From Candidatus Limivicinus sp. (GTDB taxonomy: Bacteria; Bacillota; Clostridia; Oscillospirales; Oscillospiraceae): 64,000 nt of DNA. Within the stretch, counting starts at the first letter, position 1, and each line of letters begins with the position of its first letter. The notes beneath the pieces are model-generated. The model saw only the letters and a list, made by a program, of their open reading frames with translations. It was not told where the DNA came from and made no database searches. Positions 3,104 through 63,136 of this stretch are shown here, piece by piece. The stretch lies in the NCBI GenBank assembly GCA_051866745.1, contig JBJDXQ010000022.1, forward strand, positions 84,533 to 148,532, given 5' to 3'. The position numbers were made by a program, and so were the translations under genes.

Positions 3104-4252
3104 ATGAAAGTTGCTGTTTTGGGCTTCGGCACCGTTGGGGCCGGGATTTATGAGATGCTTGCAAATGCAAAAGGGCTGGAGCAGGGGCCGGTTTTGGTGC
3201 GGCCCGGAAAGGATGACGCTCCCTTTAAGCGAACAAGCATAGAGGCCATTCTGGCGGAGCCGGGTGTGGAAGCTGTGGCGGAGGCCATGGGCGGCATTGA
3301 GCCGGCCTTCAGCTATGCCATGGCAGCTCTGAAAGCCGGCAAGCACTTTGTCACCTCCAATAAGGCTTTGGTGGCGGCCCATGGGATCGAGCTGGCCGCT
3401 GCGGCCCGGGAGAAGGGGGTGGGCTTCCTGTTCAGCGCCGCCTGCGGCGGTGGGATGCCCTTCCTGCATAATCTGAGTATCGCCGTGGAGAGCGACCTGA
3501 TCGTCTCCCTGGGCGGTATCCTCAACGGCACCACCAACTATATGCTGGACGCCATGCAGCGCCGCTCCCTGGGCTATGCCGAGGCTCTGAGTGACGCCCA
3601 GCGCCTGGGCTATGCCGAGGCAGACCCCAGCGCCGATGTCTCCGGCCTGGACGCCCTGCGCAAGATCGTCCTCAGTTCCGCGGTGGCCTATGATCTGCTG
3701 CCGGTGGAGGGCCTGTGCCATGAGGGCATCGAGAGCATCACCGCCGAGGACGTGAAGCGCATCCAGGCCCGGGGCCTCAGCTGCCGCCTGATGGCAAAAT
3801 GCGGCCCTGCCGTCGGCGGCAAGGTCTACGCCTATGTGGAGCCGGTGCTGTTCCCCGCCTCCGCCCCGGAGTGCAGCGTCCTGGATAACTACAACATGGC
3901 CCGGTATGAGGGCAAGTGCGCCGGCCCCATGGTGTTCATGGGCCAGGGCGCGGGCCGCTGGCCCACCGCTTCCGCCGTGCTGCGGGATCTGGATTGCATC
4001 CTCAAGGGTCGGCTGCATATGCTCTCCCCCGCCTGTCATGAGGGCAGCGCCGACAACGCCGCTTGCAGCCACAGCTACTATGTGCGCCTGCCCAGCAGCC
4101 TGTCCGGCTGCTTCGAGGCCAAGAGCTACAGCGAGGCTGACGGCGTCAGTGAGCTGATCACCAAACCCATGTCTGTCAAGGCCATGCATGAGCTGGCCGC
4201 CCGGCTGCGCGGCGAGGGGGCCTCCCTGTTCTTTGCCGCTGTGGAGGATTGA
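3104..4252 (+). CDS. hom: homoserine dehydrogenase
   Basis: MKVAVLGFGTVGAGIYEML Rossmann N-terminus, with GGAGG 6 nt upstream of the ATG at 3104. Homoserine-DH core motifs are present (LNGTTNYML, YAEADPS.DV.G.DA). Confidence 0.9.
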   Translation: MKVAVLGFGTVGAGIYEMLANAKGLEQGPVLVRPGKDDAPFKRTSIEAILAEPGVEAVAEAMGGIEPAFSYAMAALKAGKHFVTSNKALVAAHGIELAAAAREKGVGFLFSAACGGGMPFLHNLSIAVESDLIVSLGGILNGTTNYMLDAMQRRSLGYAEALSDAQRLGYAEADPSADVSGLDALRKIVLSSAVAYDLLPVEGLCHEGIESITAEDVKRIQARGLSCRLMAKCGPAVGGKVYAYVEPVLFPASAPECSVLDNYNMARYEGKCAGPMVFMGQGAGRWPTASAVLRDLDCILKGRLHMLSPACHEGSADNAACSHSYYVRLPSSLSGCFEAKSYSEADGVSELITKPMSVKAMHELAARLRGEGASLFFAAVED

Positions 4253-4255
4253 GCC

Positions 4256-5569
4256 ATGGTCAAGGTTGCAAAATTCGGCGGCTCCTCCGTGGCCGGGGCC
4301 CAGCAGTTTGAAAAGGTCAAGGCCATCGTGGAGGCGGACCCGGCCCGGAAGGTGGTGGTGGTCTCCGCCGCCGGCAAGCGCAGCAGCGGCGACCATAAGC
4401 TCACCGATCTGCTGTATCTCTGCCATGCCCACCTGACCTATGGGGTATCATGCGACGACATTGTTCATACAATAGAGCAGCGCCTCTGCGAGATTCGGGA
4501 CGAGTTGGGCCTTCGCTTTGATGTGGGGGCGGAGATGGCCCGGCTGGAGCAGAGCCTCAGCAAGGATATGTCCGCCGATGAGCTGGTGTCCCGGGGCGAG
4601 TACCTGACCTCCCGGCTGATGGCCGATTACCTGGGCTATCAGTTTGTGGACGCGGCGGACTGTGTTTTCTTCGCCTATGACGGTCAGGTGGACCGGGAAA
4701 AGACCTACGCCGCCATCAGGGCCGCCTATGAGCAGTACGGCCGCATCGTGATCCCCGGCTTCTATGGCCGCCTGCCCAACGGCCGCATCAAGGTGATGAC
4801 CCGGGGCGGCAGCGACATCAGCGGCGCCCTGGCCGTGGCGGCCATTGACGCCGACGTGTACGAGAACTGGACGGACGTGTCCGGCATCCTGATGGCGGAC
4901 CCCCGCATTGTGAAGGACCCCAAACCCATCGGCCGCATCACTTATGCGGAGCTGCGGGAGCTGGCCTTCATGGGGGCCTCCGTGCTCCATGAGGAATCGG
5001 TGCAGCCGGTGAAGGAGAAGGGGATCGCCCTCAACATCCGCAACACCAACTGCCCGGAGCATCCCGGGACCATCATCGTGGATAAGATTGAAAAGGAGGA
5101 GCGGGATGAACGTTTCCTCACTGGCATCGCCGGGCGGAAGAATTTCACCATCCTCACCGTCAATAAGCGGAACATGAACGCCAGCCAGACCCTGCGCCAG
5201 ACCCTGGAGATCTTTGACCACTATCATGCCAATGTGGAGCATATCACCCTGGGGCTGGACTCCTTTGCCCTGGTGACCTCCACCGCCGCCCTGGGGGACG
5301 CGCTTTACAGCCTCATGGGGGACATCGAGAAGCAGTGCCACCCGGAGGACCTGCGGGTGCAGGACGGCATCGCCCTGGTGGCTGCCGTGGGCCGCAAAAT
5401 GACCTTCCGCCCCGGCATCTCCGGCAAAATCTTCAAGGCGCTGGGCGAAGAGGGCATCAATATCCGCACCATTGCCCAGGGCGCGGATGAGCTTTCCATC
5501 ATCGTGGGCGTGGACAACAAAAATTACGAGGCGGCGGTACAGGTGCTGTACGACAGCTTCGCTGGTTAA
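4256..5569 (+). CDS. aspartate kinase
   Basis: MVKVAKFGGSSVA...VVVVSAAGK kinase N-terminus and C-terminal ACT-like repeats. It starts 3 nt after the hom stop. Confidence 0.9.
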   Translation: MVKVAKFGGSSVAGAQQFEKVKAIVEADPARKVVVVSAAGKRSSGDHKLTDLLYLCHAHLTYGVSCDDIVHTIEQRLCEIRDELGLRFDVGAEMARLEQSLSKDMSADELVSRGEYLTSRLMADYLGYQFVDAADCVFFAYDGQVDREKTYAAIRAAYEQYGRIVIPGFYGRLPNGRIKVMTRGGSDISGALAVAAIDADVYENWTDVSGILMADPRIVKDPKPIGRITYAELRELAFMGASVLHEESVQPVKEKGIALNIRNTNCPEHPGTIIVDKIEKEERDERFLTGIAGRKNFTILTVNKRNMNASQTLRQTLEIFDHYHANVEHITLGLDSFALVTSTAALGDALYSLMGDIEKQCHPEDLRVQDGIALVAAVGRKMTFRPGISGKIFKALGEEGINIRTIAQGADELSIIVGVDNKNYEAAVQVLYDSFAG

Positions 5570-21699: not shown

Positions 21700-21731
21700 G
21701 CGGGACACCGAACAATGGTGTCCCGCCTGAG
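21700..21731. repeat. left copy of duplicated terminator hairpin flanking MITE copy A
   Basis: gcgggacaccgaacaatggtgtcccgcctgag repeats at 21985-22016 with one loop mismatch. Confidence 0.85.
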
Positions 21732-21984
21732 CCTGTTAAAAAAGTCCATTTTACGGGCTGCATCAGTGAATTCTGCCGGTCAAAGGCTTCCCCTTGAGGG
21801 GAAGCTGGCGGCGCAGCCGACTGATGAGGTGGTAAGTAAAAACTTGGAAAAAGCAGAAGCTTCCGTCAAAAAAGCAGGATTTCCACCTCATCCGCCCAGT
21901 GTGCGCACTGGGCACCTTCCCCTCCAGGGGAAGGCTTGAGAAAGAACCCCTCTTCCTCGCACTATGGTTTTTTGACAGTCAGAA
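21732..21984. mobile_element. MITE-like palindromic element, copy A (about 253 bp, non-coding)
   Basis: Alignable by eye over its whole length with 48274-48527. Long imperfect inverted arms are present (ggcttccccttgaggggaagc...gatgaggtgg / ccacctcatc...ccttcccctccaggggaagg), with outer ends tgt(t/c)aaaaa / tttttgaca. Confidence 0.75.
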
Positions 21985-22016
21985 GCGGGACACCGAAAAA
22001 TGGTGTCCCGCCTGAG
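21985..22016. repeat. right copy of duplicated hairpin (the purF-proximal terminator)
   Basis: Direct repeat of 21700-21731, located 8 nt from the purF stop. Confidence 0.85.
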
Positions 22017-46195: not shown

Positions 46196-46461
46196 CCCCT
46201 ACGGTTCTGATGAGGTGGGGGGACGGCCCTCTCAGCCCAGTGTGCGCACTGGGCAGCTCCCCCAGAGGGGGAGCCAAGAGGGGTGCGGCAGAAGGCCGGC
46301 CACCTCATCCGCCCAGTGTGCGCACTGGGCAGCTCCCCCAGAGGGGGAGCCAAGAGGGGTGCGGCAGAAGGCCGGCCACCTCATCCGCCCAGTGTGCGCA
46401 CTGGGCACCTTCCCCTCGAAGGGGAAGGCTTGAGAATGGGATTTCCTTCCTCGCGGTATGG
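46196..46461. mobile_element. rearranged copy C of the MITE-like family
   Basis: The right arm ccacctcatccgcccagtgtgcgcactgggcaccttcccctcgaaggggaaggcttgag matches copies A and B. The left arm is reduced to ...ctgatgaggtgg. Confidence 0.65.
46235..46407. repeat. 76-bp tandem repeat, two identical units plus a partial third
   Basis: Units 46235-46310 and 46311-46386 are identical. The third unit (from 46387) shares the first 21 nt and then switches to the canonical arm hairpin. Confidence 0.85.
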
Positions 46462-48242: not shown

Positions 48243-48273
48243 TTGAAAAGGCAGCACATAAGTGCTGCCTTTT
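48243..48273. repeat. left copy of duplicated hairpin flanking MITE copy B
   Basis: ttgaaaaggcagcacataagtgctgcctttt is identical to 48528-48558. Confidence 0.85.
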
Positions 48274-48527
48274 TACAGCTTGTCAAAAAGTCTGTTTTAC
48301 GTGCTGCACCAGTGGGTTCTGCCAGTCAAAGGCTTCCCCTTGAGGGGAAGCTGGCGGCGTAGCCGACTGATGAGGTGGCAAGTAAAAACCGGGAAAAAAC
48401 AGAAACTTCCATCAAAAAAACAGGATTTCCACCTCATCCGCCCAGTGCGCGCACTGGGCACCTTCCCCTCAAGGGGAAGGCTTGAGAAAGTGTTCTCCTT
48501 CCTCGTACTATGTTTTTTGACAGTCTC
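48274..48527. mobile_element. MITE-like palindromic element, copy B (about 254 bp), inside the modA-modB intergenic region
   Basis: Collinear with copy A (21732-21984) with scattered substitutions. It is flanked by a perfect 31-bp direct repeat. Confidence 0.75.
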
Positions 48528-48558
48528 TTGAAAAGGCAGCACATAAGTGCTGCCTTTT
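48528..48558. repeat. right copy of duplicated hairpin (modA-proximal)
   Basis: Identical to 48243-48273; located 17 nt from the modA stop. Confidence 0.85.
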
Positions 48559-60914: not shown

Positions 60915-60967
60915 GAATAATACGAAAAGCCGCCTGCCGTATGGCAGGTGTTCGCAGAACCCTTTCG

Positions 60968-61000
60968 GTCCCGGCAGCAATGTCTGCCGGGACTTTTCTT
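60968..61000 (+). terminator. intrinsic terminator after guaB
   Basis: Hairpin gtcccggcag/ctgccgggac followed by ttttctt. Confidence 0.8.
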
Positions 61001-61064
61001 GCATATATTGAAGCCGTATGATATGATTAAACAGACCGATAAACTTGAATTTGTAGGTGAGAAA

Positions 61065-61562
61065 ATGATTTTAAGAAAAGCATATATGAATGAAGTAAAT
61101 ACATCTTATCAATGCATTGAAGAGGCAAGAGAATACCACTCTTCCCTCGGGTTTACACAATGGCATCCAGGATATCCAAGTCTCCGCACGATAGAGGAAG
61201 ATATCGAAAACGGAATTGGCTTCGTTTTTGCAGAAGATAATGAAGTGATAGGATATTGCTGTATCATAATTGGAGACGAACCGGCTTACCGTGTAATTGA
61301 TGGCTCATGGAAAACAAATAGAGCATATGCAGTTGTACATAGAATGGCATTTTCAAAGAAAAGTAGGGGTAAAAGCTTGTCGGGAAAGGCAATTTCTTTG
61401 ATTAAGGATTTCTGTATAGAAAATGGAATTGAAGCCATCCGTGTTGATACACAGGAAGAAAACAAGGTGATGCAACACATTCTTTCTCGCGAAGGATTTG
61501 AGTATTGCGGACTGGTTACTTTTGATGGCGGTCCTAAGTTGGCATATGAATGGGACCGATAA
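61065..61562 (+). CDS. GNAT-family N-acetyltransferase (low-GC gene)
   Basis: Start MILRKAYMNE follows AGGTGAG. HRMAFSKKSRGKSLSGKAISL is motif A-like. Composition is clearly more AT-rich than the neighbours. Confidence 0.8.
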   Translation: MILRKAYMNEVNTSYQCIEEAREYHSSLGFTQWHPGYPSLRTIEEDIENGIGFVFAEDNEVIGYCCIIIGDEPAYRVIDGSWKTNRAYAVVHRMAFSKKSRGKSLSGKAISLIKDFCIENGIEAIRVDTQEENKVMQHILSREGFEYCGLVTFDGGPKLAYEWDR

Positions 61563-61643
61563 ATTCCAATTTGTCGAACTGATAAAGGCGCACTTCTATA
61601 CACCTTTTGGTGTACTGTGCGGTCTGCGATTTTGAGCAGCACC

Positions 61644-61698
61644 AAAGCCTCCCTTGTGTAAAGGGAGGTGGCACGGCGAAGCCGTGACGGAGGGATTG
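61644..61698. repeat. left inverted repeat of the DUF559 element
   Basis: aaagcctcccttgtgtaaagggaggtggcacggcgaagccgtgacggagggattg is an imperfect reverse complement of 62046-62092. It supplies the GGAGGG RBS. Confidence 0.7.
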
Positions 61699-61700
61699 TC

Positions 61701-62069
61701 ATGCAGACGAAGCATAATAAACAGTTGGTTCCATTGGCAAAGCAACTGCGAAAAGAAATGACAAAAGAAGAACGTCATCTATGGTACGACTTTTTGCGCT
61801 CCTATCCTGTCCGTTTTTCCAGACAAAAGGTACTTGGAAAATATATCGCTGATTTTTATAGTGCAGAAGCAAAACTTGTCATTGAGCTGGATGGTTCTCA
61901 ACACTATGAGGATAGAAATATTAAAAAAGATGCAGACCGTACCGCTTTTCTGGAGGGGTATGGTCTGAGAGTCATTCGTATCTCCAACAACGAAGTCGGC
62001 AGAAACTTCCGTGGAGTGTGTGAGTATATCGATGCTGCGGTAAAGCAATCCCTCAGTCAGCTTCGCTGA
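61701..62069 (+). CDS. DUF559 (Vsr-like / PD-(D/E)XK) endonuclease-domain protein
   Basis: QLRKEMTKEERHLWYDFLRSYPVRFSRQKVLGKYIADFYSAEAKLVIELDGSQH...D..R...L...G..V.R is the classic DUF559 pattern. Confidence 0.85.
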   Translation: MQTKHNKQLVPLAKQLRKEMTKEERHLWYDFLRSYPVRFSRQKVLGKYIADFYSAEAKLVIELDGSQHYEDRNIKKDADRTAFLEGYGLRVIRISNNEVGRNFRGVCEYIDAAVKQSLSQLR

Positions 62070-62092
62070 CAGCTCCCTTTACACAAGGGAGC
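62046..62092. repeat. right inverted repeat of the DUF559 element
   Basis: caatccctcagtcagcttcgctgacagctccctttacacaagggagc overlaps the 3-prime end of the ORF. Confidence 0.7.
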
Positions 62093-62116
62093 CGCTGCCA
62101 CACCGGTAAAACATAC

Positions 62117-62152
62117 AAAACCGACCTATGATCGTAACCATAGGTCGGTTTT
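62117..62152. terminator. bidirectional terminator hairpin
   Basis: Hairpin aaaaccgacctatg/cataggtcggtttt. Confidence 0.8.
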
Positions 62153-62218
62153 ACTGTCTTACGAAGCCCCGGCAAACCGGCAGGCGGCTTTTTTAGGCCG
62201 TGACTGAGAGGTTTGCCT

Positions 62219-63136
62219 TTACCGGCAGACAAAGCAATGCCATTCTTCCTCGGACTTGTGCTCCAGGATCTGGAAGCCGTTGGCCTTCAGGGCGGCCTCC
62301 GTCTCTACCCAGCGGTGCTCGATAATGCCGGAGCAGATGAAAACTCCATTCTCCGCCAGGAAGGGCCGTACCATGGCCGACAGGGGGATGATCACATCCG
62401 CCACAATGTTAGCCAGCACCAGCTGATACCCGCCGCCCAGATAGGCCCGCAGGGAGGCGTCGGCAAGAATGTCCCCGGCGCAGACCTTCATCCTGTCCGG
62501 CCCGATGCCGTTGAGGGCGGCGTTGGACATCACTACCTCCGGGGCCTTGGGATCGATGTCCACGCCGAAGCAGCTGTCACAGCCCAGCACCAGCGCCCCG
62601 ATGCCCAGGATCCCGCTGCCGCAGCCCAGGTCCAGCACCCCCACGCCGGGCCCCGCAAAGCCCTCCAGCGCCGCCAGGCACATCCGGGTGGTGGCGTGAC
62701 TGCCGGTGCCGAAGATCAGCCCCGGATCCAGCCGCAGGGGCAGGCGCCCGTCCTGGGGGATCTCCTCCCATTCCGGCACCACCACCAGCTTCTCGCCCAC
62801 CTGGATGGGCTTGTAATATTCCCGCCAGTTGTTCTCCCAGTCGCTGTCCTCCACAAAGCCGGTCTCCACATCGCCGTAGGCCGCCTTGATGGAGCGCAGC
62901 ACCGCCAGGCCCTCCTCATCGTCGGTCAGGTAGCACTTGATCCGGCTCAGGCCCTTGAACTTGTCCTCCAGCTCCTGATCCACATAGTCCCAGTACTGGT
63001 GGTTGTTCTCCAGAAAGGCCTGGAAATCCGCCTCGTTTTCGATGACAAAGCCGCCCGCGCCCATGTCCGCCATCTGCTGGCAGCGCAGGTCGATCTCCTC
63101 CTCCGGGGTATTTACGGTAACTTCAATGTAACGCAT
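62219..63136 (-). CDS. prmA: ribosomal protein L11 methyltransferase
   Basis: Contains W...W..Y.P, LDPGLIFGTGSHATTRMCL and VLDLGCGSGILGI. Confidence 0.9.
   Translation of the reverse strand: MRYIEVTVNTPEEEIDLRCQQMADMGAGGFVIENEADFQAFLENNHQYWDYVDQELEDKFKGLSRIKCYLTDDEEGLAVLRSIKAAYGDVETGFVEDSDWENNWREYYKPIQVGEKLVVVPEWEEIPQDGRLPLRLDPGLIFGTGSHATTRMCLAALEGFAGPGVGVLDLGCGSGILGIGALVLGCDSCFGVDIDPKAPEVVMSNAALNGIGPDRMKVCAGDILADASLRAYLGGGYQLVLANIVADVIIPLSAMVRPFLAENGVFICSGIIEHRWVETEAALKANGFQILEHKSEEEWHCFVCR

Follow-up and report, generated by a model that had tools for sequence, protein, structure and literature searches.

Is a small nuclease gene that lies between two copies of a hairpin repeat the coding member of a mobile repeat family, and is it the partner of the gene-less repeats near it? 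The question is raised by a 64,000-nt stretch of DNA from Candidatus Limivicinus sp. (contig JBJDXQ010000022.1, positions 84,533 to 148,532; hereafter the window), in which a gene for a 122-aa DUF559 protein is bounded by inverted repeats, here called arms. A preliminary description of the window had proposed this gene as the autonomous partner of three non-coding elements that resemble miniature inverted-repeat transposable elements (MITEs). The unit consists of two inverted arms of ~50 nt with purine boxes facing inward; with a spacer of 25-60 nt between the arms it is a MITE- or REPIN-like doublet, and with the 122-aa gene inside it is a cassette. With moderate confidence, we read the gene as the coding core of a small selfish cassette in a repeat-associated nuclease system, analogous to REPIN-RAYT, in which REP doublets are paired with a REP-associated tyrosine transposase (PMC3116915, PMC3337134, PMC5581495). 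We infer that the nuclease acts on the arms and drives their mobility.

No biological role has been assigned to DUF559, a very large family that is represented in E. coli by ycjD. The intergenic DNA of many gut Firmicutes is full of short hairpin repeats of no known origin, which interrupt metagenome assemblies and add spurious tails to open reading frames (ORFs). If the link between the two is true, DUF559 would gain a testable function, the repeats would have an explained origin and the REPIN-RAYT paradigm would acquire a second enzyme class. The link could also bring to light a nuclease that recognizes particular hairpins or cruciforms in DNA, and a mode of insertion in which whole terminators are duplicated. 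In the literature searched, papers mentioning DUF559 or ycjD do not describe flanking repeats, mobility or a functional link to a repeat, and searches for accounts of such repeats in Clostridia found nothing. The preliminary description had known of no mobility mechanism for DUF559 genes, and none was described in the literature searched.

The cassette and the conservation of its arms

Arms were scored with a covariance model, R1, which was trained solely on the cassette arms of other genomes and run unfiltered over the 64 kb. The cassette and the module around it have the following features:

61701-62069, plus strand: DUF559 (Vsr-like PD-(D/E)XK) nuclease gene, 122 aa, Pfam PF04480
61644-61698, plus strand: left arm (L-type); R1 74.7 bits, E 8e-24; kept in 62 of 80 species loci
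62046-62096, minus strand: right arm (R-type); R1 68.7 bits, E 1e-21; kept in 67 of 80 species loci
61562-61643, plus strand: outer-left part of the module (leader); opens with ATTCCAATTTGTCGAAC directly after the stop codon of the GNAT acetyltransferase gene and contains two more hairpins
62097-62197, plus strand: outer-right part of the module; hairpin at 62117-62152 (AAAACCGACCTATG...CATAGGTCGGTTTT), then a second hairpin and T-run at ~62160-62197

Each arm begins with AAAG and continues with a first hairpin (hp1), a second hairpin (hp2) and a box. In the left arm, hp1 (61648-61668, CCTCCCTT GTGTA AAGGGAGG) is followed by TG, by hp2 (61670-61688, GGCACGGC GAA GCCGTGAC, that is GCACGGC-GAA-GCCGTG) and by the box (61689-61698, GGAGGGATTG), which serves as the Shine-Dalgarno sequence for an ATG 2 nt further on. 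Read on the minus strand from 62096 to 62046, the right arm has the same order of parts, with hp1 at 62072-62092, hp2 at 62056-62070 and the box, CAATCCCTCA, at 62046-62055. Its box and hp2 encode the C-terminal QSLSQLR and the TGA stop codon (62067-62069, within hp2). A repeat search found the outer part of the inverted repeat at 61649-61673 and 62067-62091 (25 nt, 92% complementary) and the inner part at 61685-61698 and 62046-62059 (14 nt, 93% complementary). The claim that imperfect inverted repeats of ~50 bp frame a 122-aa DUF559 ORF was thus borne out by the repeat search and Pfam, and direct reading of the sequence confirmed that the left repeat supplies the ribosome-binding site while the right one overlaps the stop codon and the final 8 codons.

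A scan of one genome per species returned at least 573 relatives of the window protein, and the best 80 (71-96% identical, mainly from Oscillospiraceae and allied gut Clostridia) were used as species loci. These loci were chosen through the protein and are phylogenetically related; the arms around their DUF559 genes, as counted in the list above, were found with a fuzzy regular expression. When ~77 loci were aligned, conservation was 80-99% within the arms and 30-50% right outside AAAG...CTT. The two-hairpin structure was 91.9% paired in 58 distinct arms from other genomes. Eight of eight pairs in hp2 were altered on both sides, with 151 such cells compared to 51 in shuffles; none of 500 shuffles reached the observed value, and the signal was lost when the partners were slid. 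The 8-bp hp1 was near-invariant, its GTGTA loop included. Since 19 to 61 of the 123 third codon positions of the gene differ between loci, the near-invariance of the arms indicates stronger constraint on them than on synonymous sites. Left and right arms formed two conserved types (GC-C...G-G TG...CG GA vs GG-C...G-C TG...CT GA) with a common consensus that starts AAAG(C/G)C, ends GGAGGGATTG or GATGAGGTGG and has no GTAG or CGTC tag. Chance and ordinary terminators were considered as sources of the inverted repeat and were ruled out by the flanking arms, the conservation edge, the covariation and the covariance model. Many homologues were on short contigs (0.5-1 kb) or at the end of a contig, as expected if arms break assemblies.

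The protein scored 103.3 bits (E 8.5e-30; gathering cut-off 20.6) for Pfam DUF559 (PF04480), residues 11-113 aligning to positions 5-107 of the 109 in the profile. The only other Pfam families at E <= 0.01 were MTES_1575 and DUF2726; neither Vsr at that threshold nor Y1_Tnp was matched. In NCBIfam it fell near the E. coli YcjD model, under its cut-off. Residues D51, F52, E62, D64, G65, H68, D77, R80, R93 and N96 were 99-100% conserved among 155 homologues, and the conserved core is common to E. coli YcjD, the Neisseria protein of structure 3HRL and a Deinococcus homologue. The ORF was intact in 155 of 159 homologues and substitutions were mostly at third codon positions. Judged by these comparisons, the gene is under strong purifying selection and its product looks functional. 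The sole sequence-level relative in the PDB was 3HRL (E 2.8e-10). A structure model was built from an alignment limited to sequences at least 87% identical to the query and reached a pLDDT of 64; the order of secondary-structure elements in this low-confidence model was compatible with a Vsr-like PD-(D/E)XK fold. Its best Foldseek match was 3R3P, the catalytic domain of I-Bth0305I (prob 1.0, E 1.8e-3, TM 0.57/0.69), followed by 3HRL. PADLOC gave partial matches to nuclease domains (DpdF, 50 of 1078 aa, E 4e-7; mREase_II, E 9e-6; a weak match to HEase, E 3.7e-4) and no full-length significant match to a defence protein model. PHROGs likewise gave partial nuclease-domain matches only.

A box that acts as a Shine-Dalgarno sequence and an hp2 that holds the stop codon might mean that the arms work mainly in RNA, stabilizing or regulating the DUF559 mRNA, and that the dispersed copies are REP-like modules for stabilization or termination that have no enzymatic connection with DUF559. 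Consistent with this, the leader and 3' region folded well (z -3.4 to -6.9; -3.5 for 61562-61705), the covariation of hp2 suits RNA as well as DNA hairpins, and the doublets of the window are located at terminators. We nevertheless consider this account improbable. It leaves unexplained why the arms frame DUF559 genes only, why arm type tracks the nuclease subfamily and why target duplications occur (both described below), as well as the exchanged arm sides in L341, L356 and L388 and the outward arms in L086. No Rfam family was matched, and a search of 61400-62400 at E values up to 10 gave nothing relevant. In the predicted single-sequence fold of 61562-61705, the first six bases of the module, AAUUCC, paired with GGGAUU of the Shine-Dalgarno box. 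In this model, the pairing could occlude the ribosome-binding site.

The position of the arms relative to the gene varied among more distant loci. In L341, L356 and L388 the arm types were reversed, with the right-type arm upstream and the left-type arm downstream of the gene, and in a gut contig (L086, 86-616) the arms flanked the gene with their boxes outward. Gene-arm geometry is not fixed across the wider family. The occurrence of left- and right-type arms on either side of the gene, and the overlap of the inverted repeats with the coding sequence (CDS), would suit a switch in which the arms are recombination sites that flip the gene by programmed inversion. DUF559 proteins are also enriched (odds ratio 14.3) among CDSs hit by predicted programmed inversions, a result left uncommented in the original report (PMC9881135); inverted arms would explain such an enrichment. 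We regard a switch as very improbable indeed. No recombinase gene lies beside the cassette, whose neighbours are guaB, the GNAT gene and prmA, and the orientation was the same in all three displayed contigs of the species (L082-L084; 20 more were merged with one of them on the basis of mostly the same neighbouring proteins). Only a crossover inside the box would part the gene from its ribosome-binding site; otherwise inversion would change nothing, and no switch of phenotype is evident. Gene-less doublets and target duplications would also be left unexplained.

Gene-less doublets, cargo and arm types

The three non-coding elements of the window proved to be real. Those at 21732-21984 (MITE A) and 48274-48527 (MITE B) were ~90% identical to one another, and self-BLAST resolved that at 46196-46461 into a tandem array with a period of 76 bp. 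Their features are:

21700-22016, no strand assigned: MITE A with its target duplication, GCGGGACACCGAA(C/A)AATGGTGTCCCGCCTGAG, at 21700-21731 and 21985-22016
21782-21831, plus strand: R-like arm of MITE A, type 3; R1 E 1.2e-5; GGCTTCCCC TTGA GGGGAAGC TG GCGGC..GCCGA CT GATGAGGTGG
21884-21938, minus strand: L-like arm of MITE A, type 3; R1 E 5.7e-6
46224-46432, minus strand: tandem array of three arms in the same orientation (46224-46278, 46301-46354, 46377-46432), 76-bp period
48243-48558, no strand assigned: MITE B with its target duplication, TTGAAAAGGCAGCACATAAGTGCTGCCTTTT, at 48243-48273 and 48528-48558
48328-48377, plus strand: R-like arm of MITE B, type 3; R1 E 8.9e-6
48430-48484, minus strand: L-like arm of MITE B, type 3; R1 E 2e-5

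Plain BLAST of the cassette arms against the window found the partner arm only and zero similarity to the MITE arms. R1 recovered both cassette arms and then seven of seven MITE arms (E 1.5e-6 to 2.8e-5; 2.7e-6, 1.5e-6 and 2.8e-5 for the array), whereas the next match, at E 0.13, was noise. The notion that the similarity of the arms is no better than chance therefore fails. The shared layout noted in the preliminary description extends to the left/right asymmetry: when flipped, MITEs A and B show a left-type arm, a 52-nt spacer and a right-type arm on the opposite strand, which is the layout of the cassette without the gene. These observations support the view that the arms of the cassette and those of the MITEs belong to one kind of element. 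Two of the three arms in the tandem array were chimeric, with a right-type closing pair in hp1 and a left-type hp2 and junction, which suggests recombination between arm types.

Gene-less doublets were not confined to the window. Facing doublets adjoined cassettes in L063, L066 and L053, and doublet spacers were 25-60 nt. In a collection of viral contigs, 90 loci carried the exact hp1 of type 1, the type of the window cassette, and none of the 90 had a DUF559 gene; the arms of several of these doublets were 96-100% identical to the type-1 arms of the window. Over all fetched DNA the gap between facing arms was bimodal, with 47 pairs spaced by 1-100 nt and another 76 by 300-450 nt. DUF559 was the cargo in 83 of 99 cargo-sized pairs and in two more at contig ends, and no other recurrent cargo was found between facing arms, the remaining candidates being ordinary neighbouring or phage genes. 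Inverted copies of a repeat border the gene, and the same repeat is scattered elsewhere in the form of inverted doublets.

Alternatively, the doublets might be MITEs moved by an unrelated transposase encoded elsewhere, with DUF559 trapped in the element or exploiting it, for example as a ready-made ribosome-binding site and terminator. The MITEs of the window do have outer sequences with terminal inverted repeats of their own (CTGT(C/T)AAAAA...), similar ends (TTGTCGAAC / TTTATCGAGCTG) occur at the left end of the cassette and in doublets such as L114, arms are very abundant with no DUF559 gene nearby, and an IS30-family insertion in the right arm (L093, L094) indicates that other mobile elements interact with arms. 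The resemblances between cassette ends and doublet ends are short (TTGTCGAAC compared to TTTATCGAGCTG or CTGTCAAAAA) and carry no statistical statement; BLAST of the outer-left and outer-right module sequences against gene-less doublets gave zero matches. We think it quite unlikely that the gene is a passenger. Passive cargo would vary, yet DUF559 is the only recurrent cargo and is under strong purifying selection; nor would a passenger be expected to co-diversify with arm type or to preserve one geometry across two subfamilies with 55% identity. The target duplications of 23-60 bp match no common transposase family, those of DDE elements being about 2-14 bp long.

The arms of the window MITEs led to a second group of nucleases. 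A scan with the MITE-type hp1 found at least 120 loci, and among the matches listed, L264 had a DUF559 gene 55% identical to that of the window, with MITE-type arms on both sides. The geometry was that of the window cassette, with the box as ribosome-binding site and the stop codon in hp2, and a gene-less doublet followed. A further 80 metagenome relatives of the L264 protein frequently had the same arms. Along their whole length (51-57 nt), the MITE arms of the window were 94-95% identical to arms at DUF559 genes of this sister subfamily (L354, L347, L390); in MITE A, the R-like arm shared 94% identity over 51 nt with the arm just downstream of the L347 gene, and the L-like arm shared 94.5% over 55 nt with that directly upstream of the L354 gene. 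When 153 cassettes were classified, type-1 arms accompanied 72 of 78 window-like proteins and none of 75 L264-like proteins, whereas type-3 arms accompanied 45 of 75 L264-like and none of 78 window-like proteins (Fisher p 2e-33, from counts that are not phylogenetically independent). A third paralogue, in L031, had its own matched arm pair (CCTCCCTC-TGAC-GAGGGAGG). There are several nuclease subfamilies, each with its own arm type.

The proposed pairing of an autonomous element with its MITEs was therefore right in part. The autonomous/non-autonomous relationship stands for the family as a whole, in which gene-less doublets occur and DUF559 is the sole recurrent cargo. For the gene at 61701 and the MITEs of the window it probably does not: because the MITEs have arms of the sister subfamily (type 3) and the cassette has type 1, this gene is probably not their partner.

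Mobility and target duplications

The 80 species loci represented about 70 different contexts, with flanking genes common to only a handful of pairs. Within its species, the exact window protein was always found in the context guaB-GNAT-DUF559-prmA. The exact PrmA was found only on one short contig, which ended inside the cassette, and the exact GuaB had no record. In a lineage with PrmA 95% identical (L092), the module was 93% identical in nucleotide sequence from 61562 on and followed a different upstream gene, which places the left end of the module at 61562. Homology of the leader to L001-L006, L020, L024, L092 and others likewise started at 61562, the sequence upstream being unrelated. 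The outer-right part was conserved in the closest subgroup to about 62180-62195 and was unrelated past that point, so the moved unit in this subgroup reaches about 85 nt and 100 nt beyond the arms. The outer-right hairpin (62117-62152) is a perfect 14-nt inverted repeat and is terminator-like on the minus strand.

Relatives with PrmA 87-89% identical had guaB and prmA adjacent, separated by a spacer of 76-97 bp that in L095 was a single terminator hairpin; no arms were found in the guaB-prmA loci scanned of relatives lacking the cassette (L095, L103). Another relative (PrmA 93% identical) had a different neighbour of prmA, spoVAD. The intergenic DNA of relatives lacking the cassette was too diverged to align, and an insertion point between guaB and prmA could not be defined. 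A DUF559 protein 95-96% identical to that of the window was present in Butyricicoccus (Butyricicoccaceae) and other taxa. The near-identical protein in other taxa, together with the missing cassette in relatives defined by prmA, indicates that the cassette was gained recently and by horizontal transfer. Collections of plasmids and phages held only distant relatives (<60% identical), and carriage by known plasmids or phages is not obvious from these searches.

Direct duplications flanked several of the elements. The preliminary description had reported hairpin-sized target duplications at MITEs A and B; these are real, 32 bp with one mismatch at A and 31 bp and exact at B, and each comprises a whole intrinsic-terminator-like hairpin. 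They recurred elsewhere. Flanking direct repeats of at least 16 nt, compared to a control maximum of 13, were found at 9 of 45 gene-less doublets. Duplications of 23-28 bp occurred in L161, L182 and L176, that in L161 being a 28-nt repeat that contains a hairpin. At the cassette in L032, a clean 60-bp duplication of unique host DNA, including the end of the upstream gene, bounded an inserted unit of 25 nt, left arm, gene, right arm and 14 nt. The cassette of the window had no flanking target duplication.

Under the selfish-core reading, the Vsr-like PD-(D/E)XK nuclease would recognize its cognate arm, probably as a folded hairpin or cruciform DNA, and would nick arms and/or other hairpins that are extruded, terminators for example. 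The arm-bounded DNA would then be copied or inserted with the help of host repair or replication, which would complete the process. Widely staggered nicks at both bases of a hairpin would leave duplications of 23-60 bp that are often the size of a hairpin, as was observed.

Several points weigh against this reading. To our knowledge, no strand-transfer or ligation activity has been reported for a PD-(D/E)XK nuclease, so the joining step has no assigned enzyme. The gene occupied a single site in 23 of 23 contigs of the window's species and is therefore not itself hopping now, and no second DUF559 gene was found in the 64 kb that hold the type-3 MITEs. In the more diverse L264-like subfamily, 30 of 75 genes had no arm recognizable by a strict regular expression, and significant inverted similarity of the flanks was detected in only 58%. 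Long direct repeats at the cassettes in L056, L361 and L380 include an arm and could result from recombination between arms and not from transposition. A purely expression-related role is likewise compatible with the conserved distinction of left from right arms and with a box and an hp2 that serve as Shine-Dalgarno sequence and stop codon. Finally, the counts of arm-flanked genes and of arm types overstate the number of independent events, the loci being related and selected through the protein.

The nuclease might also spread itself and not the repeats. Pre-existing doublets in the host would then be the target of homing: the nuclease would cut an empty cognate doublet, and repair through arm homology would copy the gene in. 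The strict match of arm type to subfamily is what target specificity would produce, the gene always lies exactly between a left and a right arm where conservation stops, near-identical cassettes occur in unrelated contexts of different families, and empty doublets are abundant. The best structural match, 3R3P, is moreover the catalytic domain of a homing endonuclease, and PADLOC gave its weak HEase match. We consider homing unlikely all the same. The gene is apparently single-copy per locus and fixed in the species, though many empty doublets should be available, and the doublet spacer of 25-60 nt was not found split around the gene. Neither the 60-bp duplication of unique host DNA in L032 nor a moved unit that extends past the arms is a homing product, and the spread of doublets with long target duplications would be left unexplained.

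Further observations were made at the edges of the module. Immediately upstream of it, the window has the GNAT acetyltransferase gene (60948-61562), and L092 (reverse complement of 3800-5100) has a gene for a membrane-like protein of 78 aa, the change falling exactly at the left end of the module; at the GNAT position of L082 and L083, the only product called was one of 61 aa. The stretch 62197-62213 (GCCGTGACTGAGAGGTT), which separates the module from the stop codon of prmA, resembles the inner end of an arm (GCCGTGACGGAGGGATT at 61681-61697) and may be a remnant of an older arm.

Known systems and DUF559 genes beyond the Clostridia

The likeness to REPIN-RAYT lies in a usually single-copy enzyme gene between two inverted copies of a hairpin repeat, in the dispersal of the same repeat over the genome, as a rule in inverted doublets whose spacer is short, in a separate repeat type for each enzyme subfamily and in the stability of the gene at one locus per species. 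The enzyme, however, is a Vsr-like PD-(D/E)XK nuclease (DUF559) and not an HUH/Y1 (IS200/IS605-like) transposase, and the arms are double hairpins of ~50 nt with a box, have no GTAG or CGTC tag and overlap the ribosome-binding site and stop codon of the gene. Insertions here also carry target duplications of 23-60 bp, and there are signs that the cassette has passed horizontally from one family to another, whereas the inheritance of RAYTs is described as vertical.

Autonomous transposons and their MITEs are similar in having coding and non-coding versions with common terminal inverted arms (up to 100% identical), more non-coding than coding copies, and flanking direct duplications. They differ in that the cassette encodes no transposase of a known class, its sole ORF being a 122-aa nuclease domain, and in that the duplications are far longer and more variable than those of DDE elements and often comprise a whole terminator hairpin. 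I-Bth0305I (EDxHD family, 3R3P) and free-standing homing endonuclease genes offer the catalytic domain that best matches the predicted structure, and they too are small selfish nuclease genes in unrelated contexts; the DUF559 gene, in contrast, lies in an intergenic repeat doublet, outside any intron, intein or conserved host gene, and its product is a core of ~110 aa with no extra DNA-binding domain. Vsr belongs to the same fold superfamily. Profiles of the YcjD type detect Vsr, beside which YcjD-like proteins have been placed (PMC1189080), and some sources name some homologues 'very-short-patch-repair endonuclease'. Unlike Vsr, however, the window protein does not match the Vsr family of Pfam, and no gene for a Dcm-type cytosine methyltransferase adjoins the cassette, the genomic setting being entirely different.

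GC-rich hairpin repeats were also the setting of distant DUF559 genes drawn from the collections of plasmids and phages (Deinococcus, Synechocystis, Neisseria and E. coli). The Deinococcus gene had an inverted repeat of ~40 nt on both sides (E 2e-7), and the upstream copy was kept beside DUF559 in three other species of that genus. Synechocystis had CTCAC...CCCTCTCC hairpins as an inverted pair, and in Neisseria gonorrhoeae the gene was accompanied by direct repeats with a CTCTCCC-TGT-GGGAGAG hairpin. R1 did not recognize repeats outside the Firmicutes, that of E. coli included, so any generalization rests on architecture and not on homology.

In E. coli, YcjD is a DUF559 protein about 43% identical to that of the window. 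The 3' end of the ycjD reading frame falls within a dispersed hairpin repeat (CCCTCACCCCAACCCTCTCCC TGAAA GGGCGAGGGGG), which is a single hairpin compared to the double hairpin of the window arms. This repeat, which we take to be 'box C', first seen beside envM/fabI (a literature search did not confirm the name), had a median of 14 BLAST places per genome (range 1-26). Two or three further copies lay just downstream of ycjD toward its neighbour fabI (L087, NZ_CP141089.1, 4783653-4785146; L091, K-12, 1348000-1351500). An upstream inverted copy was absent; a different, perfect 18-bp hairpin lay over the start codon. About 62% of complete E. coli genomes covered at least 80% of a ycjD-sapF query, and O157 genomes with no ycjD annotation under the match still had about 10 copies of the repeat, a comparison that is confounded by phylogroup. 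In line with the incomplete coverage of the ycjD-sapF query, the eefRABCD operon is reported in place of ycjD in some E. coli phylogroups (PMC12817139).

It is conceivable, though we hold this with more doubt than confidence, that DUF559/YcjD-type nucleases across bacterial phyla are dedicated partners of GC-rich hairpin repeat families. They would then form a second, mechanistically distinct REP/RAYT-like system, in which a PD-(D/E)XK nuclease cuts at the bases of hairpins and leaves target duplications of hairpin size. The repeat families would include the double-hairpin doublets of gut Clostridia, the hairpin repeats of Deinococcus and cyanobacteria and the repeat at the 3' end of E. coli ycjD.

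Some arms were themselves interrupted. L093 (4039-5062) and L094 (4039-4174), both from strains with PrmA 95% identical, were considered as cases of alternative cargo and were rejected when the extra DNA was found to be an IS30-family transposase element inside the right arm, exactly at the hp1/hp2 junction (directly after GGGAGCTG). Arms are thus a target of other mobile elements. Nested insertions also broke the right arms in L020 (3346-3439, 43 nt in the hp1 loop) and L004 (3346-3476), which indicates that arms can be targets for small elements. In L239 (12903-13514) and L250 (3489-4102), arms lay in or at the end of ORFs for phage structural genes and the predicted proteins had tails such as ...PRHLPLKGKAGG, so that arms in such ORFs give rise to spurious or altered predicted C-termini.

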